This document shows, piece by piece, positions 1 through 10,461 of a stretch of DNA of 10,461 nucleotides. Position 1 is the first letter of the stretch; every line of letters begins with the position of its first letter. A program made the position numbers and the translations under genes. The notes beneath the pieces are model-generated. The model was given only the letters and a program-made list of their open reading frames with translations. It was not told the origin of the DNA and ran no database searches. This stretch comes from a virus (taxonomy: Duplodnaviria; Heunggongvirae; Uroviricota; Caudoviricetes): the IMG/VR virus record IMGVR_UViG_2657245081_000002; one strand, written 5' to 3'.

Positions 1-17
1 CTATAATNNNNNNNNNN

Positions 18-201
18 CGATGTTGGTATTCCCCTCACTGTCCAGCACCGGCGTACTGTTCAGCAGTACGCTTTTTAATCCATCCACCGGACCTTCAATC
101 GGCCCTTCACTGATGGCGTCTATCACGCTCAGCATCTGGGATGATTTCAGGTTGTCCTTCGCTTCGCGCGGGGTATGCCCCTTACTGCTGCCTTTACCCA
201 T
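18..201 (-). CDS. J: Host specificity / tail tip protein J, N-terminal fragment (start codon 199-201; truncated by N-run at 8-17)
   Basis: Translation MGKGSSKGHTPREAKDNLKSSQMLSVIDAISEGPIEGPVDGLKSVLLNSTPVLD matches the lambda gpJ N-terminus as recalled. It sits 60 bp downstream (on the minus strand) of the I stop, the same spacing as in lambda. Confidence 0.85.
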
Positions 202-261
202 TCCTCACGCTCCATAAACGACAAAACCGCCCGCAGGCGGTTTCACATAAAATGTTTTGCA

Positions 262-871
262 TCAGCGACCAATCACCACAACCTGACCACCATCCCCTTC
301 GTCTGCCGTGCTGATCTCCTGAGAGACCACCCGCGACCCCACGCGCATTTCACCGTACAGAACGGGCAGAACATTGCCCTGGGCAACCATGTTATCCAGT
401 GACGAGAAATAGGTGTTCTGTTTGCCGTTATCTGTACTTGCTGCCGTGGGCGTCCTGGCTTTCGGTGCCAGCATCTGCGCCACTCCGCCCAGGATCATAC
501 TGGCCCCTGCCGCATACATGCCCGATACAGCCGCGGCACCCAGCCAGCCCACAGGGTTCCACCATGCCACCGCAATCAGCGCCGCCCCCAGCACCACCTG
601 AAACACACCGCCACTTTTAGCTCCCGCCAGACGCGGCACGATGTGGATCACGGCACCATTTGCCAGCGGCTCATTAAGACGGGCAGACAATTCGGTTTCA
701 CCTGCATCACGCCCGGCAATGCGTACCTGGTACCAGCCGTCGCTCAGTTTCTGACGAAACGCCGGGTTCTGCATGGCCAGCGCCCGGATGGCTTCGGACC
801 CCGTTTTCACTCGAAGGTCGATGCGGCGGCCAAATCGTTGTAAATCCCCGTAAAGGCAGATGCGTGCCATG
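262..871 (-). CDS. I: Tail assembly protein I (stop at 262-264; N-terminus probably lost in the N-run at 872-881)
   Basis: 202-aa translation MARICLYGDLQRFGRRIDLRVKTG...GKQNTYFSSLDNMVAQGNVLPVLYGEMRVGSRVVSQEISTADEGDGGQVVVIGR matches lambda gpI over most of its length, including the conserved C-terminus. Confidence 0.85.
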
Positions 872-881
872 NNNNNNNNNN

Positions 882-1221
882 CCCCGCCACCATCCCGCCG
901 GGCGTGTCCATATCGAGCAGAATGCCGTCCACCATCGGATCGCTGGCAGCCTGTTGCAGACGGGCGATAATGCCGTTGTAACCGGTCATCCCCGAGTACG
1001 GCTGCAGCGCCCGCGTCCGGCTGACCAGCGTGCCGGACACCGGCAGCACGGCGATGCCGTTCATGACCTGATAACTGCGGGCCTGTCGTGGTCCGTCATC
1101 ATCACCGGATAACGCCAGCGCCGCGGGTGCCTCTCCGGCAGTCAGGCTGTCGCCGGATACTGCATCCGTCAGGCGGCTGATCCCAAGCTGGCCTGCAAGC
1201 GCACAAAAGAAAACCCGCGCA
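882..1221 (-). CDS. C: Prohead protease / scaffold protein C (S49 peptidase family), internal fragment
   Basis: Minus-strand translation ARVFFCALAGQLGISRLTDAVSGDSLTA...LSGDDDGPRQARSYQVMNGIAVLPVSGTLVSRTRALQPYSGMTGYNGIIARLQQAASDPMVDGILLDMDTPGGMVAG matches the N-terminal region of lambda gpC. Both ends are cut by N-runs. Confidence 0.8.
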
Positions 1222-1231
1222 NNNNNNNNNN

Positions 1232-1340
1232 TGCCAGCGTCGCGAGTGCCTCCTGGGCAGTCAGGCTGTCGCCGGACACCGCATCCGTCAGGCGGCTGAT
1301 CCCAAGCTGGCCTGCAAGCGCACAAAAGAAAACCCGCGCA
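1232..1340 (-). CDS. C: Second, variant copy of the same C-gene segment (short fragment)
   Basis: Minus-strand translation ARVFFCALAGQLGISRLTDAVSGDSLTAQEALATLA. The last 81 nt (1260-1340) are nearly identical to 1141-1221 (2 mismatches by eye) and the sequence diverges upstream of that. Confidence 0.7.
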
Positions 1341-1350
1341 NNNNNNNNNN

Positions 1351-1600
1351 AGGCGTGGCTTACAGCCGTGTGTCGACTTTTTCCGGGGATTATCTCCGCG
1401 TAACTGACAACAAGGGAAAAACGCACGACGTGCTGACCGGAAGTGATGACGCTCGCCACAGTAACACCTCTCTGGCGTGGGGAGCTGGCGTGCAGTTTAA
1501 CCCGACCGAATCCGTGGCCGTTGATGTCGCTTATGAAGGCTCCGGCAGTGGCAACTGGCGCACTGACGGGTTCATCGTGGGTGTCGGTTATAAGTTCTGA
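1351..1600 (+). CDS. lom: Lom/Ail/PagC-family outer-membrane protein, C-terminal fragment (stop 1598-1600)
   Basis: Translation ...YSRVSTFSGDYLRVTDNKGKTHDVLTGSDDARHSNTSLAWGAGVQFNPTESVAVDVAYEGSGSGNWRTDGFIVGVGYKF ends in the family's terminal aromatic beta-strand and matches lambda Lom with a few substitutions. Confidence 0.85.
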
Positions 1601-1626
1601 TTAGCCAGGTAATACAGTGTTATGAC

Positions 1627-1653
1627 AGCCCGCCGGTTCAGGCGGGCTTTTTT
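1627..1653 (+). terminator. Rho-independent terminator downstream of lom
   Basis: GC-rich inverted repeat agcccgcc / ggcgggct around a short loop, followed by a run of six T (1648-1653). Confidence 0.7.
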
Positions 1654-1664
1654 GTGGGGTGAAT

Positions 1665-1673
1665 ATGGCAGTA
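1665..1673 (+). CDS. stf: First three codons (MAV) of side tail fibre gene stf, cut by N-run
   Basis: ATG at 1665 follows gtggggtgaat, the same context as the stf start at 8796 on the minus strand in the second lom-stf copy. Confidence 0.5.
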
Positions 1674-1957
1674 NNNNNNNNNNAAATCCAGATTAAACAT
1701 CTCATTGCTGATGCTTGATATTGAGCATCTGGCGCGCAGTAAGGGGCTGCGTTGAGATAAGAGCCAGTTCATTACAAATACCAGGATTTAGCCTCGCATT
1801 CGCGGGGCTTTTTATATCTGAATTTCACAGCGCATCTCACGCGCATATTAACGAGAGCCTTTCAGTAAGCGAGCCTGAGAAATGCCGTTATAGGTGGCGA
1901 CCTCTCTCGGGCGGCTTTTCTGTGAGACAGGCTCACTTTCTAAAAGGTAAAGACGCT

Positions 1958-2482
1958 ATGAATAATCATTCAGTTATTCCAGCCTTCGACTTCCGAGAAA
2001 TGGTGCAAGCCAAAAACGGAGAGGTCGTTACCACATCCAGAAAAATTGCCAAGTACTTCGGCAAGCGACACAGTGATGTTCTCAGGAAAATCGAGCAGGT
2101 TAAGGCTGATTGCTCGCGTGAGTTTAGCCAACGCAATTTTGCGTCGGCTGATTATATCGATGAGCAGGGCAAGGTTCGCCCGATGTACAGCCTGACGAAA
2201 GATGGCTGGATCATGGTTGTGATGGGGTTCACCGGGAAAGCTGCTGCGGCAATCAAGGAGAGCTATATCGCAGCATTCAACTGGATGGCAGAACAACTGA
2301 GCCGCCGCATGGCAATTGGCGAAGAAATGCAGCACCGCTACGCCATCAAAGAAACACGCTCAAAGCTGAAAGGTACGATCGGCAGTCGGTTAATGAACGA
2401 ACGGAAGAAAGAGAAGCGTGTCCTGGCTGTCGAGCATGAATACATCTTGCAGGTGACACAGCCTGAACTGCTGATTAATTGA
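1958..2482 (+). CDS. Phage regulatory protein, Rha family (pRha-domain, antirepressor-like)
   Basis: ATG at 1958 preceded by aaaagg-taaaga, a Shine-Dalgarno-like stretch. Translation MNNHSVIPAFDFREMVQAKNGEVVTTSRKIAKYFGKRHSDVLRKIEQV... has the pRha N-terminal signature (TTS..IA..FGKRH..VLR.I). The listed ORF begins at 1715, but the upstream 81 codons have no ribosome-binding site and look non-coding. Confidence 0.6.
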   Translation: MNNHSVIPAFDFREMVQAKNGEVVTTSRKIAKYFGKRHSDVLRKIEQVKADCSREFSQRNFASADYIDEQGKVRPMYSLTKDGWIMVVMGFTGKAAAAIKESYIAAFNWMAEQLSRRMAIGEEMQHRYAIKETRSKLKGTIGSRLMNERKKEKRVLAVEHEYILQVTQPELLIN

Positions 2483-2784
2483 AGATGTCATTACAAAGCC
2501 TATCTACGGGGGGCTTGATAATGGCTTATACCCTGCACGGGATAACTTAACTGATATCCCTTTTAACGGATAAAGGTATTCAAGCCTGACACATCATGCG
2601 CTGTATCGTCGCCGTATTCCCGCATTAACCATGACCGTAGCCCGACGGGGAATTCCTTCTGCGTGAGTGTGCGGGAATAATCAAAAACGATGCACACCGG
2701 GTTATTAACGCGTCAACTGAACGCGGGGTTGCTCTTCATGTCAGCCAGTCCGGTGCAGGGGTAGAAGAAACCGGACGTTATGGT

Positions 2785-3195
2785 TTAGTGTGGAAACATT
2801 TGTGATGTGCTCTGTATGTTTTCAGTAAAGAGTAATGAATTATCAAAGGTATAGTAATATCTTTTTTGTTCGTGGATATTTGTAACCCACCGGAAAACTC
2901 CTGCTTTAGCAAGATTTTCCCTGTATTGCTGAAATGTGATTTCTCTTGATTTCAACCTATCATAGGACGTTTCTATAAGATGCGTGTTTCTTGAGAATTT
3001 AACATTTACAACCTTTTTAAGTCCTTTTATTAACACAGTGTTATCGTTTTCTAACACGATGTGAATATTATCTGTGGCTAGATAGTAAATATAATGTGAG
3101 ACGTTGTGACGTTTTAGTTCAGAATAAAACAATTCACAGTTTAAATCTTTTCGCACTTTATCGAATATTTGTTTAAAAATGGCAACCTGAGCCAT
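2785..3195 (-). CDS. AT-rich prophage cargo ORF, tentatively DUF1398 family (YbcV/YdfO-like)
   Basis: 136 codons from the ATG at 3195, which is preceded by gaagg. The alternative upstream ATG at 3210 would add 5 codons. Visibly lower GC than neighbours. Two-repeat architecture with F..Y...L...GV..Y motifs, e.g. [28 protein letters not shown]. Position just upstream of cos mirrors ybcV next to nohD in DLP12. Family call is from memory and tentative. Confidence 0.4.
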
Positions 3196-3251
3196 TGTAG
3201 TACCTTCCATGTGATATGAGGGGCGTAGTCTGCACGATTATCTAAATTGCT

Positions 3252-3485
3252 TCAATCTGGTCTGATCTGTTTTCTGAGCAATTCAGTAATGTCACTCTTT
3301 TCTTTGTTTGCTTCAGGAGAAACTCTTTTTTCTGAGCACAGTCTCCGGCGGCAGGCTTCAATGACCCAGGCTGAGAAATTCCCGGACCCTTTTTGATCAA
3401 GAGCGATGTTAATTTGTTCAATCATTTGGTTAGGAAAGCGGATGTTGCGGGTTGTTGTTCTGCGGGTTCTGTTCTTCGTTGACAT
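3252..3485 (-). CDS. Small basic protein, possible ribbon-helix-helix DNA-binding protein
   Basis: 77-aa ORF. The N-terminus is Arg/Thr-rich, followed by NIRFPNQMIEQINIALDQKGSGNFSAWVIEACRRRL, which resembles a strand-helix-helix (CopG/Arc-like) pattern. No strong ribosome-binding site. Function inferred from the motif only. Confidence 0.35.
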   Translation of the reverse strand: MSTKNRTRRTTTRNIRFPNQMIEQINIALDQKGSGNFSAWVIEACRRRLCSEKRVSPEANKEKSDITELLRKQIRPD

Positions 3486-3639
3486 GAGGTTGTCCCGTAT
3501 TCAGTGTCGCTGATTTGTATTGTCTGAAGTTGTTTTTACGTTAAGTTGATGCAGATCAATTAATACGATATCTGCGTCATAATTGATTATTTGACGTGGT
3601 TTGATTGCGTAGATGCACGTTGTGACATGCAGATGATAA

Positions 3640-3873
3640 TTATTATCATTTTGCGGGTCCTTTCCGGCGATCCGACAGGTTACGGGGCGGCGACCTCGCG
3701 GGTTTTCGCTATTTATGAAAATTTTCCGGTTTAAGGCATTTCCGTTCTTCTTCGTCGTAACTTAATGTTTTTATTTAAAATACCCCCTGAAAAGAAAGGA
3801 AACGACAGGTGCTGAAAACGAGCTTTTGGGCCTCTGTCGTTTCCTTTCTCTGTTTTTGGCCGTGGAATGAACA
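3640..3873. other. cos: Lambda-type cos site: cosQ, cosN (12-nt cohesive-end sequence gggcggcgacct at 3685-3696) and cosB
   Basis: 3541-3873 is near-identical to the joined right and left ends of lambda as recalled (...ccgacaggttacg | gggcggcgacctcgcgggttttcgctatttatgaaaattttccggtttaagg...), and the Nu1 start follows at 3874. Confidence 0.85.
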
Positions 3874-3919
3874 ATGGAAGTCAACAAAAAGCAGCTGGCT
3901 GACATTTTCGGTGCGAGTA
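3874..3919 (+). CDS. nu1: Terminase small subunit Nu1, first 15 codons (cut by N-run)
   Basis: MEVNKKQLADIFGAS is the lambda Nu1 N-terminus, in the expected position relative to cosB. Confidence 0.85.
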
Positions 3920-3929
3920 NNNNNNNNNN

Positions 3930-4494
3930 TCTGCGGCGGGAAGGGCAGATCACCGGTATACAGGTGCCGGAAATTATTCTACTCAACTCTCACGATGGAA
4001 CCAGTTCGTATCAGATGTTGCCGGGACTATTTCGTGCGGTTTGTCAGAACGGGCTCGTCTGCGGTGAGTCGTTTGGCGAGGTGCGGGTGCCACACAAGGG
4101 GGACGTGGTGAGTCAGGTGATTGAAGGCGCGTATGAGGTGCTGGGGATTTTTGACCGGGTGGAGGAGAAACGGGATGCCATGCAGTCGTTGCTGTTGCCA
4201 CCCCCGGCACAGCAGGCACTGGCAAAAGCCGCCCTCACATACCGCTTTGGTGAAGACCACCAGCCGGTGACTGAATCGCAGATCCTCTCCCCTCGCCGCT
4301 GGCAGGATGAGAGCAATGACCTGTGGACCACGTACCAGCGGATTCAGGAAAACCTGATTAAGGGCGGACTCAGCGGGCGTAATGTTAAAGGCGAACGAAC
4401 GCATACTCGTGCCGTGCGTGGCATTGACGGGGACGTGAAGCTTAACCGTGCGCTGTGGGTGATGGCTGAAACACTGCTCACACAACTGCATTAG
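3930..4494 (+). CDS. UPF0380/DUF932-family protein (YfjQ/YafZ-like) of a CP4-type integrated element, C-terminal fragment (stop 4492-4494)
   Basis: Translation ...ILLNSHDGTSSYQMLPGLFRAVCQNGLVCGESFGEVRVPHKGDVVSQVIEGAYEVLGIFDRVEEKRDAMQSLLL...NRALWVMAETLLTQLH resembles this family as recalled. It is not part of Nu1; the apparent in-frame fusion across 3920-3929 is an artefact of the N-run. Confidence 0.65.
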
Positions 4495-4709
4495 ACGTTT
4501 TATGTTGCCACATTGTTATTATCGGACACCACCTGTCCGAATTGCTACGTGCTCGTGTGCCTCAATCTCCCGGTAATAGCCTGTAACCCCCGTTACATCT
4601 GGCTTTTGCAGAAATAAAAAATAGTTTCTGCGTTGTCCATACCCTGTCCGCCCCCTGTTTAAAGTAATCACATCATTTTCAGTCAGTTAACTTTCCTGGA
4701 GAACCTCTC

Positions 4710-5050
4710 ATGACACAGGCAGAACGCCGCCATGACCGGCTGGCTGTCAGGCTGTCACTGATAATCAGCCGTCTGGTTGCGGGTGAAACGTTGAGCGTGC
4801 GCAAACTGGCGGCTGAGTTTGGCGTGTCGGTGCGCACGCTGCGGCGTGATTTTCGTGAGCGGCTGATGTATCTGGACCTGGAGTATCAGTCCGGATATTG
4901 CCGCTTACGCACAGCGGGCAGTGAGACGCAGATGGTGCCCGACGTGCTTATCTTTGCCCATCGCAGCGGGATGGCCGGTCTTTTTCCTGGCTTTGACCGC
5001 CGTCTGGTGAACGCACTGCTGATGTGCGATGAGTCTCCCTGCGTTATAGC
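4710..5050 (+). CDS. HTH transcriptional regulator (YfjR-like, DeoR/HTH_11-type), N-terminal fragment
   Basis: ATG at 4710 preceded by ggagaacc. Translation [52 protein letters not shown]... shows a helix-turn-helix of the S.RTL.RD type. Same orientation and adjacency as yfjQ-yfjR in CP4-57. Confidence 0.55.
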
Positions 5051-5060
5051 NNNNNNNNNN

Positions 5061-5164
5061 CTTATCGTTGGCGTCCTTCCACTCTTTCGAAAACTCATCC
5101 AGTTTGCTGGCGTTATCCTCCGTCAGGTCGACTTTTTCCAGCAGCTCCTTGCCGAGATGGGATT
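5061..5164 (-). CDS. J: Tail tip protein J, short fragment from the C-terminal third
   Basis: Reverse-complement translation [34 protein letters not shown] matches lambda gpJ ...[35 protein letters not shown] as recalled. Confidence 0.7.
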
Positions 5165-5175
5165 NNNNNNNNNNA

Positions 5176-5238
5176 GCACCGATCCTGGCGGGGATTATTA
5201 CCGCAGCGATTGTCAGCTGGTGGCGTAACCGGAAGTAA
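5176..5238 (+). CDS. C-terminal 20 codons of an unidentified protein with a hydrophobic tail then basic end (stop 5236-5238)
   Basis: In-frame translation APILAGIITAAIVSWWRNRK then stop. The pattern looks like a membrane anchor, but the family is not recognised and the fragment is too short to call. Confidence 0.25.
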   Translation, partial: APILAGIITAAIVSWWRNRK

Positions 5239-5341
5239 GGTGAAAACGGGCGTCAGGCTGCCGTGATGGCAATATNNNNNNNNNNATTGATATGGCTTTA
5301 GTAGCGGTATCAATATCAGCAGTAGAATAAGTTTTCCCGAT

Positions 5342-5418
5342 GCATCCGTAGCTCAGCTGGATAGAGTACTCGGCTACGAACCGAGCGGTCGGAGGTTCGA
5401 ATCCTCCCGGATGCACCA
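5342..5418 (+). tRNA. tRNA-Arg (anticodon ACG), copy 1
   Basis: 77-nt sequence gcatccgtagctcagctggatagagtactcggctACGaaccgagcggtcggaggttcgaatcctcccggatgcacca is the E. coli argQ/Z/Y/V-type tRNA with encoded CCA. Confidence 0.95.
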
Positions 5419-5480
5419 TCTCTTACTTGATATGGCTTTAGTAGCGGTATCAATATCAGCAGTAAAATAAATTTCCCGAT

Positions 5481-5557
5481 GCATCCGTAGCTCAGCTGGA
5501 TAGAGTACTCGGCTACGAACCGAGCGGTCGGAGGTTCGAATCCTCCCGGATGCACCA
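5481..5557 (+). tRNA. tRNA-Arg (anticodon ACG), copy 2
   Basis: Identical 77-nt tRNA sequence, 62 nt after copy 1. Confidence 0.95.
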
Positions 5558-5691
5558 TATTCTACGTACTTTCAGCGATGAAGGTATGGAAGAGGTGGCG
5601 GTAATAACCGCAGGCACCAGGGAGGATAACGTTGCTTTAGCAACGGCCCGAAGGGCGAGCCGCAAGGCGAGTAATCCTCCCGGATGCACCA
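5558..5691 (+). repeat. Inter-tRNA spacer element ending in a copy of the last 19 nt of tRNA-Arg (aatcctcccggatgcacca, 5673-5691)
   Basis: About 115 nt of non-tRNA sequence containing ggataacgttgctttagcaacggcccgaagggcgagccgcaaggcgagt, fused to an exact copy of the tRNA T-stem and acceptor 3' strand plus CCA. It is followed by the same 62-64-nt leader that precedes every tRNA copy. Confidence 0.8.
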
Positions 5692-5755
5692 TCTCTTACT
5701 TGATACGGCTTTAGTAGCGGTATCAAAAAATCTGCAGTAAAGTAAGTTTCCCGAT

Positions 5756-5832
5756 GCATCCGTAGCTCAGCTGGATAGAGTACTCGGCTACGAACCGAGC
5801 GGTCGGAGGTTCGAATCCTCCCGGATGCACCA
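5756..5832 (+). tRNA. tRNA-Arg (anticodon ACG), copy 3
   Basis: Identical 77-nt tRNA sequence. Start-to-start spacing from copy 2 is 275 nt, which matches my recollection of the chromosomal arg tRNA cluster. Confidence 0.95.
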
Positions 5833-5960
5833 TATTCTCCGAAATCTTCAGCAATGAAGGTATCGAAGAGGTAGCGGAATTAACCGCAGGCACTAGGGAT
5901 GATAACGTTGCTTTAGCAACGGCCCGAAGGGCGAGCCGCAAGGCGAGTAATCCTCCCGGA
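5833..5960 (+). repeat. Second copy of the spacer element (about 90% identical by eye to 5558-5691), cut inside the tRNA 3'-end copy by the N-run
   Basis: tattctccgaaatcttcagcaatgaaggtatcgaagaggtagcgg...ggataacgttgctttagcaacggcccgaagggcgagccgcaaggcgagtaatcctcccgga aligns with 5558-5685, with scattered substitutions. Confidence 0.8.
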
Positions 5961-5970
5961 NNNNNNNNNN

Positions 5971-6255
5971 TGACGCTCACCGGTCAGCCGGCCTTTCTCA
6001 TCATATCCGTAATACACCGCCACCCGGTGCCCTTCGCTGATATGGCTGGTGTCTGTCAGCCAGCCGCGTTCGTCATACCGCCACCGCTCTGCGGTTTCGC
6101 CATTCACGGTGCGGTGCGTGAGGCGGTCTGCTTCGTCATAGTGCCAGTGGGTGACCAGCCCCTCATCCTCGCTGCGGATAAGTTTGCCGGTCAGATCGTG
6201 GTGATAACGCTGTGTGCGGCCGTCAAAGCCGGTTTCCTGTATCAGCCGGTCGAGT
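5971..6255 (-). CDS. Rhs family protein, YD-repeat core fragment
   Basis: Minus-strand translation LDRLIQETGFDGRTQRYHHDLTGKLIRSEDEGLVTHWHYDEADRLTHRTVNGETAERWRYDERGWLTDTSHISEGHRVAVYYGYDEKGRLTGE shows repeated YD/RYD motifs and matches the RhsA core region as recalled. Confidence 0.8.
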
Positions 6256-6265
6256 NNNNNNNNNN

Positions 6266-6527
6266 CGTGGGGAATCTCTACCGGCTGATGCGCGGCTATG
6301 CCACCGGTGGTTATGTCGGTACACCGGGCAGTCTGGCTGACAGCCGGTCGCAGGTGTCCGGGACGTTTGAGCAGAATAACCATGTGGTGATTAACAACGA
6401 CGGCACGAACGGGCAGATAGGTCCGGCTGCTCTGAAGGCGGTGTATGACATGGCCCGCAAGGGTGCCCGTGATGAAATTCAGACACAGATGCGTGATGGT
6501 GGCCTGTTCTCCGGAGGTGGACGATGA
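6266..6527 (+). CDS. H: Tail tape measure protein H, C-terminal fragment (stop 6525-6527)
   Basis: Translation ...GGYVGTPGSLADSRSQVSGTFEQNNHVVINNDGTNGQIGPAALKAVYDMARKGARDEIQTQMRDGGLFSGGGR matches the lambda gpH C-terminus. The stop overlaps the M start as ATGA. Confidence 0.85.
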
Positions 6528-6633
6528 AAACCTTCCGCTGGAAAGTGAAACCCGGTATGGATGTGGCTTCGGCCCCTTCTGTAAGAAAGGTGCGCTTTGG
6601 TGATGGCTATTCCCAGCGAGCGCCTGCCGGGCT
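6524..6633 (+). CDS. M: Minor tail protein M, N-terminal fragment
   Basis: MKTFRWKVKPGMDVASAPSVRKVRFGDGYSQRAPAG matches the lambda gpM N-terminus. The start overlaps the H stop at 6524-6527, the arrangement used for translational coupling. Confidence 0.85.
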
Positions 6634-6643
6634 NNNNNNNNNN

Positions 6644-6974
6644 GGCATTTGCCGCCCGGACTGTCAGCCTGTAGTTTCCCAGCGCCAGCTGCGTGAAGCG
6701 GTATGTGGTTTCCGTCGTCCGGGCCGTGCTGACCAGCCGCTCACTGCCGTCATCCGCTGCCACGGTCAGGCGAAGCAGGAAACTCACGCCCTTCACCACC
6801 TTCGGCGTGTCCCAGCGCGCCAGCACCTGGTATTCCCCGCTGTCTGCGGTGACTTCTGCGGTCAGGTGCTGCACCGCTGGCGGCGTGACACCGTTTACCG
6901 TTCCGCTCTGGTCGCCGTCAAAGTGCGCCCCGTTATCCACGATGGCTTCTTTCTCCGGTACATGCTGCACGGCA
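6644..6974 (-). CDS. J: Tail tip protein J, internal fragment
   Basis: Minus-strand translation AVQHVPEKEAIVDNGAHFDGDQSGTVNGVTPPAVQHLTAEVTADSGEYQVLARWDTPKVVKGVSFLLRLTVAADDGSERLVSTARTTETTYRFTQLALGNYRLTVRAANA matches the central region of lambda gpJ. Confidence 0.85.
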
Positions 6975-7044
6975 NNNNNNNNNNAAAATAAAATAGAGAG
7001 AGTTTTCAATCCGCATGACTTTAAAAAAGACAATTTTTAGAAAT

Positions 7045-7076
7045 AAGCCGGATAAAAAAATAGCTTTATCCGGCAC
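7045..7076 (-). terminator. Probable rho-independent terminator after corA
   Basis: Inverted repeat gccggataaa...tttatccggc. On the minus strand it is followed by T-rich sequence immediately downstream of the corA stop. Confidence 0.5.
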
Positions 7077-7081
7077 TCATA

Positions 7082-7319
7082 TTACAACCAGTTCTTCCGC
7101 TTAAAGTACAGATACGGTGCCAGGCCCGCGAGGATCATAAAGATAATCGCGGCAGGGTAGCCGAAGCTCCACTTCAGTTCTGGCATAAACTCAAAGTTCA
7201 TGCCATAGCTGGAAGCAACGAGCGTCGGCGGCAGGAATACCACGGATACCACCGAGAAGATTTTGATGATGCGGTTCTGCTCGATGTTGATAAAACCCAT
7301 TGCCGCCTGCATCAGGAAG
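7082..7319 (-). CDS. corA: Magnesium/cobalt transporter CorA, C-terminal fragment (stop 7082-7084)
   Basis: Translation ...[51 protein letters not shown] carries the CorA GMN signature motif and the two C-terminal transmembrane helices. Confidence 0.85.
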
Positions 7320-7329
7320 NNNNNNNNNN

Positions 7330-7459
7330 AGGCATGCTGGCCACCGGCTTACCGTAGACGGATGCCCCTTTAATGGGGATCACCCGGAACAGCCCATGCT
7401 TTTTCGAGCGTTCATACACAATGGTCGGGTCAATCCCGCCAATATCCCAGCAGATACGG
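7330..7459 (-). CDS. A: Terminase large subunit A, internal fragment
   Basis: Reverse-complement translation RICWDIGGIDPTIVYERSKKHGLFRVIPIKGASVYGKPVASMP matches lambda gpA as recalled. Confidence 0.8.
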
Positions 7460-7491
7460 NNNNNNNNNNATTGTGCAATTAATAGCGCCAT

Positions 7492-7744
7492 TTACATCAA
7501 ACAACTGGCCTGCTGACGTTTTTGCGCATAAAACAGATACGCAGCAGACGTTCCAACCTCAAAAACGTTTTGTCGAGTACTGGAACCCCACACCCTGACA
7601 GAAAACGGTAGTTCTGCATTACCTGAGTTCTGTAAAACAAAACGATTACCAGTCCCTGATTGCTTTGTAAGGGTTAAATCAACGGTTGAGTTAACCTCAT
7701 CCTTGTTGATAGTGAGCGCCTGCGCTTTAGCCCCGTTAACAGCA
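7492..7744 (-). CDS. C-terminal fragment of an unidentified protein (stop 7492-7494)
   Basis: An open frame runs from the N-run to a stop: AVNGAKAQALTINKDEVNSTVDLTLTKQSGTGNRFVLQNSGNAELPFSVRVWGSSTRQNVFEVGTSAAYLFYAQKRQQASCLM. It looks beta-rich, as in structural or adhesin-like proteins, but I do not recognise the family. Confidence 0.3.
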
Positions 7745-7754
7745 NNNNNNNNNN

Positions 7755-8132
7755 TCGGTGACAGTGATTTCTGCAACCGCAGCAAGTTCACCATTACCGG
7801 ATACAACCGGAATGTTGACCTTACCTGCAGCAACGCCTTTCACGGTGATGGTTATACCACTGACCGACACGGTGGCTTTTGTTTTATCCGCTGACACCGC
7901 ACGGAAGCTCTTGTCAGTTGCGCCCTCCGGCTGGAATGCCACGGTCAGCGTGGTGCTCTGCCCTTTCACCACCGAGGAGCTGGCAGGCGTCACGGTCATA
8001 CCGGTTGCCGCCGTCACCGTACTGCGATCTTCTGCCATTGACGGACGGCCCACATTGGTGACCTTCACCGTACGGGTGATCACTTCCTTCGCCGTCACCG
8101 CCTTACCGATACTGCTGACCCAGCCACGGAAC
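7755..8132 (-). CDS. V: Major tail protein V, C-terminal fragment including the Ig-like (Big_2) domain
   Basis: Minus-strand translation, open to both N-runs: [125 protein letters not shown] matches the lambda gpV C-terminal region. Confidence 0.85.
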
Positions 8133-8142
8133 NNNNNNNNNN

Positions 8143-8796
8143 TGCAGATTTTTGTGACGCTGCAGCATTCGTTTCTGACGTTTTCGCCGCACCGGCACTG
8201 GTAGCCGCCGCGCTTTTTGAGGACTCTGCAGCGGCAGCACTTTTTGATGCTTCAGTAGCCTTTGTTGATGCCGTTCCTGCGCTGGAAGACGCTGACTGAG
8301 CCGACGTCGCGGCCTGCCCGGCTGATGTGCTGGCTGCACGTGCTGAGCCTGCAGCATCAGTCGCATGGGTTGCCGCCTCACGGGCTGATGTGCCGGCATC
8401 ACTGGCTGACTTCTTCGCGGCTGCCGTGTTCTGTGCCACTGCGGACGCGTTACGCGCCACCTCTTCCACCATCAGTTCAAAACGGCGCAGTGCCTCCGGA
8501 CGGGCATCATCCTCCGTCATGGCACCGAGAAAATCATTCAGCGTACCCGGTTGTGAGTCTTCATACACGGTGATGGTCCCGGCATGCGATGGCGGGAAGC
8601 CTTCCACCAACAGAATAACGCTGTACTGACCGTACTCAACGTCCATGCTGTAACGCCCTGCTTCATCCGGATTTTCAGATGCCACCGTGTTCACCACCAC
8701 CGTGGTGCTGTTACGTTTTGCTTTCAGCTGGATTGTGCAGTTCTGTACCGGTTTACCTGCACCGTCTTTCAGTACACCTGAAATCTTTACTGCCAT
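8143..8796 (-). CDS. stf: Side tail fibre protein Stf, N-terminal fragment (start codon 8794-8796)
   Basis: MAVKISGVLKDGAGKPVQNCTIQLKAKRNSTTVVVNTVASENPDEAGRYSMDVEYGQYSVILLVEGFPPSHAGTITVYEDSQPGTLNDFLGAMTEDDARPEALRRFELMVEEVARNA..., followed by the Ala/Ser/Thr-rich repeat region typical of lambda Stf. The listed ORF starts 14 codons further upstream, but MAVKIS is the conserved start. Confidence 0.8.
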
Positions 8797-8805
8797 ATTC
8801 CCCCA

Positions 8806-8833
8806 CAAAAAAGCCCGCCTGAACCGGCGGGCT
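8806..8833 (-). terminator. Rho-independent terminator between lom and stf (second copy)
   Basis: Reverse complement has stem agcccgcc / ggcgggct followed by a T-run. It is the same hairpin as 1627-1653, with a few flanking substitutions. Confidence 0.7.
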
Positions 8834-8859
8834 GTCATAACACTGTGTTACCTGGCTAA

Positions 8860-9169
8860 TCAGAACTTATAACCGACACCCACGATGAAACCGTCAGTGC
8901 GCCAGTCGCCACTGCCGGAGCCTTCATAAGCAATATCAATGGCCACCGATTCGGTCGGGTTAAACTGCACGCCAGCTCCCCACGCCAGAGACGTGTTGCT
9001 GTGGCGACCGTCATCACTTCCGGTCAGCACATCGTGCGTTTTCCCCTTGTTGTCAGTTACGCGGAGATAATCCCCGGAGAAAGTCGACACACGGCTGTAA
9101 GCCACACCCGCCATCGCATACGCGCTGAACCATTCATTCACGCGTACAGACGGCCCCGCCATCACGCTG
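8860..9169 (-). CDS. lom: Lom outer-membrane protein, C-terminal fragment (stop 8860-8862), second allele
   Basis: ...SVMAGPSVRVNEWFSAYAMAGVAYSRVSTFSGDYLRVTDNKGKTHDVLTGSDDGRHSNTSLAWGAGVQFNPTESVAIDIAYEGSGSGDWRTDGFIVGVGYKF matches lambda Lom. It differs from the 1351-1600 copy at 4 residues (A/G, V/I twice, N/D). Confidence 0.85.
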
Positions 9170-9179
9170 NNNNNNNNNN

Positions 9180-9382
9180 GCGGGCAGGGCGATGTCGGTT
9201 TCACCGGGAAGGACCTTTGCACCGAGCAGCGGATTGACCGGATGGCCGGACGTCACCCCGCCGGGGCACACCGAACAGGCCACGCCGGTGGGGGCACCGA
9301 TGCGTACCCCGGCTGAACCCTGGACAATGCTACCGCCATACTGCGTCATGTCGCCCTGACGCGCCGCCGGTTTTCCGCTCAT
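9180..9382 (-). CDS. Rhs protein N-terminal (PAAR-like) domain fragment (start codon 9380-9382)
   Basis: MSGKPAARQGDMTQYGGSIVQGSAGVRIGAPTGVACSVCPGGVTSGHPVNPLLGAKVLPGETDIALP matches the RhsA-type N-terminus. An aagga Shine-Dalgarno sequence lies just upstream on the minus strand. Confidence 0.75.
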
Positions 9383-9655
9383 CTGCTCATCCTTGTTTTA
9401 TCGGGTTATTTGTNNNNNNNNNNCTTTTGTTTACTTCGGAGAAAACAAACATGTTAACCAAAGGCAGTGCCCTTAACGTCGGTAAGGGATGGGCGGTAGC
9501 GTCTTTATTCCGCAAAGCACGCGAAAATCGCCAGGCTAAATTTTACTTAAAGTCAGCAGGTGTAGATTCAATCTGTCAATGCAACACCCCTTTCAATTAT
9601 CTCTTTCGGTGTTTTGAACTNNNNNNNNNNGTTTTAACATCAAACTCAGATGTTA

Positions 9656-9728
9656 AGCGTGAAGGATAACGTTACGCCAGCAACGGCCCGTAGGGCGAGC
9701 GAAGCGAGTCATCCTGCACGAGCCACCA
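9656..9728 (+). repeat. Spacer element upstream of tRNA-Lys ending in a near-copy of the tRNA-Lys 3' end (catcctgcacgagccacca, 9710-9728)
   Basis: ggataacgttacgccagcaacggcccgtagggcgagcgaagcgagt aligns with the core of the tRNA-Arg spacer element at 5625-5672. The 3' 19 nt mimic the T-stem and acceptor 3' strand plus CCA of tRNA-Lys, with 2 mismatches to the authentic gene sequence. Confidence 0.7.
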
Positions 9729-9776
9729 ATTTTAAAGATTGGTTCCGAGTAGAAATCTTTCAGGTAACACCCATAT

Positions 9777-9835
9777 GGGTCGTTAGCTCAGTTGGTAGAG
9801 CAGTTGACTTTTAATCAATTGGTCGCAGGTTCGAA
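9777..9835 (+). tRNA. tRNA-Lys (anticodon UUU), 5' 59 nt; 3' end lost in the N-run
   Basis: gggtcgttagctcagttggtagagcagttgacTTTtaatcaattggtcgcaggttcgaa is the E. coli lysT-family tRNA sequence. Confidence 0.85.
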
Positions 9836-9845
9836 NNNNNNNNNN

Positions 9846-9952
9846 CGGTTTCTAACCTGTACGGTATGGTCACCGGGATGGCGGAAGATCTGCAGAGTCT
9901 GGTCGGCGGAACGGTGGTCCGGCGTAAGGTTTACGCCCGTTTTCTGGATGCG
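9846..9952 (+). CDS. L: Minor tail protein L, internal fragment
   Basis: Translation VSNLYGMVTGMAEDLQSLVGGTVVRRKVYARFLDA matches lambda gpL ...TLTVSNLYGMVTGMAEDMQSLVGGTVVRRKVYARFLDAVNF as recalled. Confidence 0.8.
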
Positions 9953-9962
9953 NNNNNNNNNN

Positions 9963-10278
9963 AACGAAAGGGGATACGGGAAAACGTAAAACCTTCGTGA
10001 ACACCACGCTCGGTGAGACATGGGAAGCGAAAATCGGTGAACGTCCGGATGCTGAAGTGATGGCAGAGCGGAAAGAGCATTATTCAGCGCCCGTTCCTGA
10101 CCGTGTGGCTTACCTGACCGCCGGTATCGACTCCCAGCTGGATCGCTACGAAATGCGCGTATGGGGATGGGGGCCGGGTGAGGAAAGCTGGCTGATAGAT
10201 CGGCAGATTATTATGGGCCGCCACGACGATGAACAGACGCTGCTGCGTGTGGATGAGGCCATCAATAAAACCTATACC
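9963..10278 (+). CDS. A: Terminase large subunit A, internal fragment
   Basis: Translation GDTGKRKTFVNTTLGETWEAKIGERPDAEVMAERKEHYSAPVPDRVAYLTAGIDSQLDRYEMRVWGWGPGEESWLIDRQIIMGRHDDEQTLLRVDEAINKTYT matches lambda gpA. It is on the opposite strand to the gpA fragment at 7330-7459. Confidence 0.85.
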
Positions 10279-10288
10279 NNNNNNNNNN

Positions 10289-10461
10289 GCGCCGCCAGCT
10301 TGCGTACAAGCAGCTCTGGCGTGGCGGTCAGGTGCTTGCTGTTCCGCCAGCGTATACAAGCCAGCGTTGCGCGTACTGTGGTCATACAGCGAAAGAGAAC
10401 CGCCTGTCACAAAGTAAATTCAGATGCCAGGTATGTGGATATACAGCGAACGCCGATGTAA
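10289..10461 (+). CDS. tnpB: IS200/IS605-family TnpB (OrfB) C-terminal zinc-ribbon fragment, running off the window end
   Basis: Frame translation ...LAYKQLWRGGQVLAVPPAYTSQRCAYCGHTAKENRLSQSKFRCQVCGYTANADV shows the pattern Y.S..C..CG(8-11)R.F.C..CG...NAD.NAA.NI typical of TnpB C-termini. Confidence 0.55.

Follow-up and report, generated by a model that had tools for sequence, protein, structure and literature searches.

The window, a stretch of 10,461 nucleotides, consists of 24 sequence blocks (B1 to B24) separated by runs of N (Table 1). Mosaic lambdoid prophages, at least three of them, account for about 66% of it, and the remainder is other multicopy DNA: Rhs, tRNA-Arg and tRNA-Lys arrays, LDR, IS30, IS609 insQ, yfjQ-yfjR, and the 3' end of corA. 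The runs of N number 23, and all have a length of exactly 10. The preliminary description of this DNA had counted 24, probably by taking the number of blocks for the number of runs; its block size of roughly 100 to 2,200 bp agrees with the 101 to 2236 nt measured for complete blocks.

Table 1. Blocks and features of the window, with the matches that identify them. Arrows mark matches running down the lambda coordinates.
Feature	Position	Strand	Content	Match
B1	1-7	+	CTATAAT, last 7 nt of large chromosomal contig (sthA-fabR-yijD-trmA-btuB-murI)	
B2	18-871	-	Complete tail assembly gene I (262-870), J 5' end (18-201), overlapping K 3' end	lambda 15686->14811, 82%; Pfam Lambda_tail_I
B3	882-1221	-	Head protease/scaffold gene C fragment, allele 1	lambda 4834->4495, 97.4%
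B4	1232-1340	-	Gene C, segment as in B3, allele 2	lambda 4603->4495, 99.1%
B5	1351-1673	+	lom 3' end, intergenic region, first stf codons, allele 1	lambda 19451-19658; L003 14484-14806, 100%; Pfam Ail_Lom
B6	1684-3919	+	Lambdoid prophage right end through cos into nu1	lambda 48141-48502 then 1-236; Pfam
B6, Rha	1958-2482	+		
B6, DUF1398	2785-3210	-		
B6, YlcI/YnfO	3252-3485	-		
B6, cosN	~3684/3685			
B6, nu1	3874-3919		First 46 nt	
B7	3930-5050	+	yfjQ (DUF932) 3' part and yfjR 5' part, CP4-57-type island	Pfam DUF932, HTH_DeoR
B8	5061-5164	-	J fragment	lambda 18078->17975
B9	5175-5275	+	Ldr type I toxin gene 3' end (LDR long direct repeat)	
B10	5286-5960	+	Internal piece of argV/Y/Z/Q tandem array; both ends inside the array's own repeat	
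B10, tRNA-Arg(ACG) x3	5342-5418, 5481-5557, 5756-5832			
B11	5971-6255	-	Rhs core (YD-repeat) fragment	Pfam RHS_repeat, E = 8e-12; RHS_repeat gene call in L018
B12	6266-6633	+	Tape measure gene H 3' end and M 5' end	lambda 12842-13209, 97.6%
B13	6644-6974	-	J fragment, Ig-like domain	lambda 17594->17266; Pfam Ig_J
B14	6985-7319	-	corA 3' end and downstream sequence	Pfam CorA; 100% matches annotated corA
B15	7330-7459	-	Terminase large subunit gene A fragment	lambda 2218->2090, 97.7%
B16	7470-7744	-	Side tail fibre gene C-terminal part, S74-peptidase type	L001 14001-14275, 97.8%, within annotated tail fibre CDS; L003, 99.6%
B17	7755-8132	-	Major tail protein gene V fragment	lambda 9687->9311; Pfam Phage_TTP_12, Big_2
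B18	8143-9169	-	stf 5' part, intergenic region, lom 3' end, allele 2	lambda 20302->19458; L001, 99.2%; Pfam phage_tail_N
B19	9180-9413	-	rhs gene 5' end, rhsC-type N-terminus, ATG at 9382, plus 31 nt upstream	
B20	9424-9620		~54-80 nt of IS30-family end, and flank matching tra region of conjugative plasmids	
B21	9631-9835	+	lysY-lysZ spacer and first 59 nt of tRNA-Lys(UUU), truncated (9777-9835)	K-12 L009 2724-2928
B22	9846-9952	+	Minor tail gene L fragment	lambda 13667-13773, 99.1%; Pfam Phage_tail_L
B23	9963-10278	+	Terminase large subunit gene A fragment	lambda 1745-2060; Pfam GpA_nuclease
B24	10289-10461	+	insQ/TnpB (IS609-type RNA-guided endonuclease) C-terminal fragment	Pfam Cas12f1-like_TNB
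10-N spacers	within 8-10288		Starts at 8, 872, 1222, 1341, 1674, 3920, 5051, 5165, 5276, 5961, 6256, 6634, 6975, 7320, 7460, 7745, 8133, 9170, 9414, 9621, 9836, 9953, 10279	

The window matches, letter for letter, positions 1,409,286-1,419,746 of GenBank WGS record JRRM01000033.1 (L018), which belongs to GCA_001413415.1, the draft assembly of Escherichia coli RU1 MA4 (strain name from a table in PMC9638481). Sequencing of MA4, which is a mutation-accumulation clone, used 100-bp paired-end Illumina reads (PMC4263409). The kinship of the RU1 lines is documented in PMC9638481 and PMC4263409, neither of which describes how the deposited assemblies were built. The runs of N sit at the same places in an independently retrieved copy of JRRM01000033.1 and are thus part of the deposited public record, in which 27 of 27 are exactly 10 long. 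Inside the 1.5-Mb record, 27 short contigs (101 to 2236 nt) follow one another between a contig ending at rrnB P1 and a Tn3-bearing contig, and the window covers most of this series.

The phage-derived blocks follow one another as J/I, C, C, lom-stf, cos-nu1, J, H/M, J, A, stf, V, stf-lom, L, and A on mixed strands, and the native lambdoid order on one strand (nu1-A-W-B-C-...-V-G-T-H-M-L-K-I-J-lom-stf) is not found in the window. Nor is each gene represented by a single allele, as in a native prophage: there are two alleles of C (B3 and B4) and two of lom-stf (B5 and B18). B3 and B4 end in an exact common suffix of 60 nt, the first base of B4 is a mismatch, and the two blocks are the arms of one bubble. 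B5 and B18 are related as an inverted repeat over 308 nt at 95%. One J segment exists as three distinct alleles across the RU1 lines, the third of which is B8, with 44 copy-specific and 60 shared nt. Therefore, the strain carries at least three lambdoid prophages, in keeping with the several proposed in the preliminary description. That description had also recognized J pieces in B2, B8, and B13, terminase A on opposite strands in B15 and B23, a lom-stf junction occurring twice in opposite orientation, and scattered tail genes H/M and L. Annotated lambda and Pfam confirmed all of these assignments, and V is among the scattered tail genes too.

Every nonphage block is multicopy in closed genomes, and the chromosomal items named earlier (corA, tRNAs, and Rhs) are real, comprising the 3' end of corA, three tRNA-Arg, a truncated tRNA-Lys, and Rhs in B11 and B19. 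The contig upstream of the first run of N reads ...ttgtcaggccggaataactccctataat (L018 7900-8050). Its end point, in B1, is what we take, from the published promoter sequence, to be the -10 hexamer of the rrnB P1 promoter, and closed genomes have a median of 3 places matching its terminal 120 nt. Matches at 100% are annotated DUF932 or yfjR for B7 (in closed genomes; median of 2 places per genome having B7), Ldr family toxin for B9 (median of 2 and maximum of 9 places per genome), rhsC for B19 (median of 3), and insQ for B24 (median of 2), a block that is cut by the window end and measures 305 nt in the full record. B14 occurs at 2 to 3 places in the best-matching genomes, where one copy adjoins IS1 elements. 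Within B20, positions 113-197 match IS30 ends (up to 23 places per genome) and positions 1-137 match plasmids at 99.3% with the annotation traA; in the RU1 line BHI7, this sequence runs contiguously into an IS30 transposase gene. The last 60 nt of B10 (5901-5960) recur without change at 5625-5684, whereas the base before them, 5900, is a mismatch, and no closed genome was colinear with B10 at 100%. B21 begins at the first base past one tRNA copy and ends inside the next, and its terminal 59 to 60 nt are exact in all tRNA-Lys copies.

Block ends and repeat boundaries agree to the base, and the ends carry a 60-nt (k - 1) signature. Nine blocks end in 60 nt that are identical to a second, diverged copy from the same strain, and the 61st base differs. 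For B3, B4, B6, B8, B10, B13, B18, and B23 this was an exactly 60-nt match at the 3' end to a second diverged RU1 copy (an MA5 allele for B13 and a BHI7 allele for B23), B17 and the MA5 contig facing it have an overlap of exactly 60 nt, and B21 extends 59 to 60 nt into tRNA-Lys. At the other end, the first block base was a mismatch in 40 of the 83 alignments that reached it (∼4% expected), and only 3 alignments started at base 3. B18 ends in the reverse complement of the 60-mer directly after which B5 starts. Between blocks, no suffix-prefix overlaps of ≥20 nt were found within any of six assemblies, and the k - 1 overlap that de Bruijn unitigs have at both ends is kept at the 3' end only. This 3'-only overlap, together with the variant first base, therefore points to a node-style output format, and suffix-prefix overlaps would be absent because such output drops the leading overlap.

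From these features we infer a k of 61. Each block would be a de Bruijn graph node (unitig) printed minus its leading 60-nt overlap, starting at the first base past a 60-mer shared with another genomic copy and ending 60 nt past the last base that distinguishes it from a paralogous copy. The last 60 nt of B15 differ from the only other allele at hand, so the k = 61 model holds for this block only with a third allele that has not been seen. The assembler did more than emit raw unitigs, since it passed through some repeats in B6, over 852, 918, or 939 nt depending on the line.

The preliminary description had called the blocks repeat-collapsed contigs. In its stricter form, in which every block is a consensus of several genomic copies, we consider this reading possible but doubtful. 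The sequences are multicopy in closed genomes, the path of B10 through a tandem array is nearly cyclic, and the first 852 to 939 nt of B6 are common to at least two prophages in the RU1 lines, with positions 1-852 identical between contexts. However, different alleles of one segment stand side by side as B3/B4 and B5/B18, and B8 is a third J allele; several blocks are therefore copy specific and not a collapsed consensus. In a k = 61 graph, moreover, a variant base at the start of a block marks it as a noncollapsed arm. B3, B4, B5, B18, and B8 are copy-specific alleles between short stretches common to paralogous prophages. Collapse is too strong a word for many blocks, for which “repeat-bounded unitigs” is the more accurate term.

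None of the 23 junctions was colinear in phage lambda, closed prophages, or K-12. When the blocks were mapped separately, as had been proposed, the flanks of every run of N fell kilobases apart, on opposite strands, or in unrelated loci. Among 5,426 complete E. coli genomes, none held ≥80% of the window in one place, and the best single place held 34% of it, spread over a 20-kb prophage. The sister lines MA5, MA7, LB5, LB12, and BHI7 share the ancestor of MA4 and were independently assembled; their five assemblies contain identical sequences with other cut points, another order, and other neighbors. Separate mapping, block ends, and reproducibility of order, which approximate the three checks that had been proposed, all bear out the view that the window is a patchwork of short blocks rather than a native locus.

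The same comparisons make it very improbable that the window is a genuine paired-end scaffold in which read pairs support order and orientation and each run of N is a small unresolved gap. Neighboring blocks lie 10 to 30 kb apart on the lambda map, far beyond a short-insert library, or are unrelated or on opposite strands. On the lambda map 29 nt separate B23 from B15, against 2.5 kb in the window, where they are also inverted. Neighbors differ between sister assemblies of the same ancestor, and closed genomes contain none of the junctions. Some scaffolders and assemblers put 10 N, as a minimum gap, between abutting contigs, which would suit gaps that are all of the same minimal length, and B3 and B4, the arms of one bubble, do adjoin; nevertheless, gaps that are all 10 N are not distance estimates, and the neighbors are not within the insert size. 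Least credible of all, to the point of being negligible, is a native locus, for example one filled with prophage and IS fragments, in which a database or pipeline masked short stretches to N: some collections do mask stretches in this way and degraded prophages do occur in E. coli, but the runs of N are already in the public GenBank record, masking would leave flanks colinear across a 10-nt hole and none are, the 60-nt rule at block ends relative to paralogous copies is a property of assemblers and not of biology, and every E. coli genome has intact versions of the essential single genes and tRNA arrays that the window contains as fragments.

We conclude that the window is almost certainly an assembly artifact composed of repeat-bounded short contigs of draft E. 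coli RU1 MA4 glued by fixed 10-N linkers, and the interpretation in the preliminary description is supported. Because unrelated short contigs are joined by 10-N spacers, gene order across any spacer is meaningless. The submitter would have joined contigs into long records via fixed linkers, which we infer to come from plain concatenation rather than scaffolding. Fragmentation would occur wherever exact repeats exceed 60 nt, the break sites being the three or more mosaic lambdoid prophages, Rhs elements, tRNA-Arg and tRNA-Lys tandem arrays, LDR repeats, IS30, IS609, CP4-57-type islands, the partly duplicated corA, and rrn operons.

This arrangement resembles pseudomolecules built from contigs and N linkers, which have an identical spacer length throughout and unrelated sequence on either side, and in the 1.5-Mb record, short contigs derived from repeats lie among large chromosomal ones. 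There is no difference in kind from such records, although the short contigs of JRRM01000033.1 were neither moved to the end nor sorted by size. The blocks also behave as de Bruijn unitigs fragmented at repeats longer than k - 1, with ends exactly 60 nt past the last copy-specific base, starts on a variant base, bubble arms (B3/B4 and B5/B18) emitted as separate contigs, and a minimum contig just over 100 nt. Unlike the usual FASTA output of common assemblers, the contigs in the window lack mutual k - 1 overlap, which is kept at the 3' end only, and unlike plain unitig fragmentation, some repeats were resolved in some RU1 lines, as in B6. The phage content is like that of the mosaic lambdoid prophages of E. 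coli, with nu1, A, C, V, H, M, L, K, I, J, lom, and stf at 82 to 99% identity to lambda and two or three alleles per segment; the window does not represent any single prophage, its gene order and strand being scrambled. The K/I/J module in B2, a non-lambda allele that is 97.6% identical to prophages with a ClpP-capsid fusion head, belongs to another prophage lineage than the lambda-type head genes.

The window is an artefact of assembly, in which 24 blocks (B1 to B24, in window order) are bounded by 23 N-runs, each exactly 10 nt long. Complete blocks measure 101 to 2,236 nt, B1 is only 7 nt, and B24 is cut by the end of the window. A preliminary description had seen in the sequence a patchwork of blocks and not a native locus. 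That observation is confirmed and its interpretation is supported, with two corrections: the 10-N spacers are as described but number 23, not 24, and the blocks are bounded by repeats but not uniformly collapsed. Lambdoid prophage sequence accounts for 6,898 nt of the window (∼66%). Mapping of blocks to annotated lambda reproduced the reported inconsistencies in its gene content, namely, three J fragments (all on the minus strand), terminase A fragments on opposite strands, a lom-stf junction that occurs twice in opposite orientation, and scattered tail genes (see the table). The lom-stf pair forms a 308-nt inverted repeat with 95% identity. Pfam assignments were concordant with the lambda mapping wherever fragment length sufficed.

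Features of the window, by block and window coordinates
Block	Position	Strand	Feature	Basis
B2	18-871		K/I/J module	
B2	18-201	minus	J fragment	Lambda mapping
B5	1351-1673	plus	lom-stf junction	
B6	1684-3919		Intact cos region, including lambda-like inverted repeat (3793-3849)	
B6-B7	3874-4494	plus	206-aa ORF, nu1 start fused to yfjQ	
B7			yfjQ-yfjR	
B7-B9	4710-5228	plus	172-aa ORF, yfjR start, through two N-runs, into B8 and B9	
B8	5061-5164	minus	J fragment	Lambda mapping
B9			Ldr toxin / LDR repeat	
B10	5286-5960		Three tRNA-Arg(ACG)	
B11			Rhs core	Pfam
	6266-6633		H/M	Lambda mapping
B13	6644-6974	minus	J fragment	Lambda mapping
B14	6985-7319		corA 3' end	Pfam
B15	7330-7459	minus	Terminase A, lambda 2218 to 2090	Lambda mapping
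B17	7755-8132		V fragment	Lambda mapping
B18	8143-9169	minus	lom-stf junction	
B18-B19	9134-9382	minus	82-aa ORF, rhs start codon in B19, through N-run, into B18	
B19			rhsC 5' end	
B20	9424-9620		IS30 end and flank resembling plasmid tra region	
B21			lysY-lysZ spacer and 59 nt of tRNA-Lys	
	9846-9952		L	Lambda mapping
B23	9963-10278	plus	Terminase A, lambda 1745 to 2060	Lambda mapping
B24			insQ / TnpB	

Neighboring blocks are never colinear in lambda, closed prophages, or K-12, which upholds the earlier view that adjacency across the N-runs is not biological. Of 5,426 complete Escherichia coli genomes, none has a single place that contains 80% or more of the window; the highest coverage by one place is 34%, with the pieces dispersed over a 20-kb prophage. 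On the lambda map, 29 nt of gene A separate B23 and B15; the window places them at a distance of 2.5 kb and in inverted orientation. One junction, with its N-run, was also searched for by exact pattern in genome and viral contig collections and gave 0 matches, likely because each species is represented by a single genome in the species collection or because the search does not match an N in the target.

JRRM01000033.1 (GCA_001413415.1) contains the whole window as an exact substring at positions 1,409,286 to 1,419,746, and the N-runs are present in the GenBank record itself. Six NCBI records with 10-N patchworks were retrieved by exact match to the Rha protein that B6 encodes. GCA_001413415.1 is named E. 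coli RU1 MA4 in a published table, and the other five records are RU1 MA5, MA7, LB5, LB12, and BHI7 (PMC9638481). From RU1, a human-stool isolate, came replicate LB and BHI populations as well as twelve mutation-accumulation (MA) clones, and these derivatives were sequenced by 100-bp paired-end Illumina reads; the same paper gives no description of how the deposited assemblies were constructed (PMC4263409).

Comparison of these sister lines is the strongest test of the junctions. The lines share a common ancestor, and identical sequences are cut at different positions and have different neighbors. The 2,236 nt of B6 form a single block in MA4 but two parts in LB12, divided near position 852 and lying 6 kb apart. 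Likewise, B20 is a stand-alone 197-nt block in MA4 and lies within an 8.6-kb contig in BHI7. A true paired-end scaffold is excluded, because neighboring blocks are too distant from each other and the sister assemblies disagree on which blocks are neighbors. The LB5 assembly has one 456-N run among its 10-N runs (L016, a stretch retrieved from that assembly, 16298 to 16753); therefore, a second kind of gap exists in the RU1 records.

Block ends coincide with repeat boundaries in a highly regular manner. In every comparable block (B3, B4, B6, B8, B10, B13, B18, and B23), the 3' end matches a second, diverged copy from the RU1 lines for exactly 60 nt and then mismatches. The 3' ends of B3 and B4 were compared with each other, and that of B10 was compared with an internal copy (mismatch at 5900). 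B17 and the facing MA5 contig have an overlap of exactly 60 nt, and B21 enters tRNA-Lys for 59 to 60 nt. Of 83 alignments at 5' ends, 40 have their mismatch at base 1 of the block, where ∼4% is expected from mean identity, and only 3 begin at base 3. B5 starts directly after a 60-mer whose reverse complement ends B18.

This pattern is the one produced by nodes of a de Bruijn graph with k − 1 = 60 that are printed without the leading overlap. Suffix-prefix overlaps of k − 1 between blocks were not found, which would follow from nodes printed in this way. Their absence was considered as an argument against a de Bruijn origin and rejected, as the overlap is asymmetric and found only at the 3' side. 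We infer both k = 61 and the output format. The end of B15 does not fit the single other allele at hand, and the de Bruijn model requires a third allele here; at least three alleles do occur in RU1. A native locus with masked stretches is also excluded, since the flanks of every N-run are noncolinear, and the block ends obey an assembler rule; the N-runs also belong to the GenBank record.

Upstream of the patchwork lies a large chromosomal contig that runs from sthA to murI and stops at ...ttgtcaggccggaataactccctataat (L018, a retrieved stretch of JRRM01000033.1, 7931 to 8050; window 1 to 7). We take this end to be the rrnB P1 promoter through its −10 hexamer (TATAAT), downstream of murI. Closed E. 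coli genomes have a median of 3 places that match the last 120 nt of the contig; therefore, the contig breaks at the start of the multicopy rrn promoter region. It is followed by 27 short blocks over ∼12 kb and then by a 4,053-nt block (record positions 1,421,332 to 1,425,384; L023 3354 to 6779). This block, the first larger one past the patchwork, encodes a Tn3-family transposase (923 amino acids) and a GFA-domain gene and precedes a contig with a truncated metL along with metB and metJ.

Every nonphage block is multicopy in closed genomes. The corA reported previously is not B7, which is yfjQ-yfjR; the corA fragment is B14. Both MA4 and MA5 have this corA 3' end as a short contig of its own, and closed genomes that match it at 100% have it in 2 to 3 places. 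In one genome, CFSAN061762, a corA-ysgD segment lies between IS1 copies, beside mrk fimbrial genes and IS26 (L022 19247 to 22458), an arrangement that resembles a second, mobile corA copy. B20 consists of an IS30-family end and ∼140 nt that are 99.3% identical to conjugative plasmids under a traA annotation. In BHI7 (L013 7244 to 8599), one contig carries the B20 sequence without interruption beside an IS30 transposase gene and the chromosomal mhp operon, and this contig may be chimeric across the IS.

The three tRNA-Arg(ACG) genes of B10 are spaced 139 and 275 nt apart, with the argV-argY type spacer after the short one, and no colinear 100% match to this spacer order was found in the 5,426 complete E. 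coli genomes. Both ends of B10 fall in one copy of the 54-nt repeat of the array, 14 nt apart, so the block is a nearly closed cycle of 689 nt. As a near-cyclic route through the arg tRNA array, B10 is either the product of mis-threading or an array variant specific to the strain. If the path is true, it would be a new copy number or order variant of the argVYZQ array. ARAGORN also called a minus-strand tRNA-Arg(tcg) at 5501 to 5572, which was rejected as an antisense image of the tRNA-Arg(ACG) at 5481 to 5557 that lacks Rfam support.

ORFs that run through N-runs have been called as genes in the public record. The products read across the spacers are chimeric "proteins," and the 82-amino-acid product occurs in one contig only, that of this record, among 153 billion gene positions. 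The value of these results lies in data hygiene, as a warning for pipelines, and not in biology. Synteny, operon, defense-island, or prophage-boundary inference from such windows would be false. Detection of regular fixed-length N-runs is a cheap filter for genome scans, and the 60-nt end signature allows concatenated de Bruijn unitigs to be recognized quickly without reads. Any novelty is at most strain-level biology hidden in the fragments: in a reading that is improbable as a whole, RU1 may combine its mosaic lambdoid prophages, at least three in number, with a partial second corA and an unmatched tRNA-Arg(ACG) array arrangement.

Repeats bound the blocks, but collapse does not apply to every one: gene C is represented by two alleles (B3 and B4), as is lom-stf (B5 and B18), and B8 carries the third allele of a J segment whose other two alleles are found together in both MA7 and LB12. 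RU1 therefore has at least three lambdoid prophages. Among the 5,426 complete genomes, full-length identity to B6 reaches only 97.3%, so these did not offer a finished near relative sharing the prophage to which all blocks could be mapped. At least two RU1 prophage contexts have the first 852 to 939 nt of B6 in identical form, and B6 may therefore combine pieces of different prophage copies. The K/I/J module in B2 is 82% identical to that of lambda and 97.6% identical to that of prophages with a ClpP-protease/capsid fusion in the head (L003 to L008), in which the fusion adjoins a Gifsy-2-type gene. One RU1 prophage has a K/I/J module typical of ClpP-capsid fusion-head prophages. The other head genes in the window (A and C) are of the lambda type, so more than one prophage lineage contributed to the fragments.
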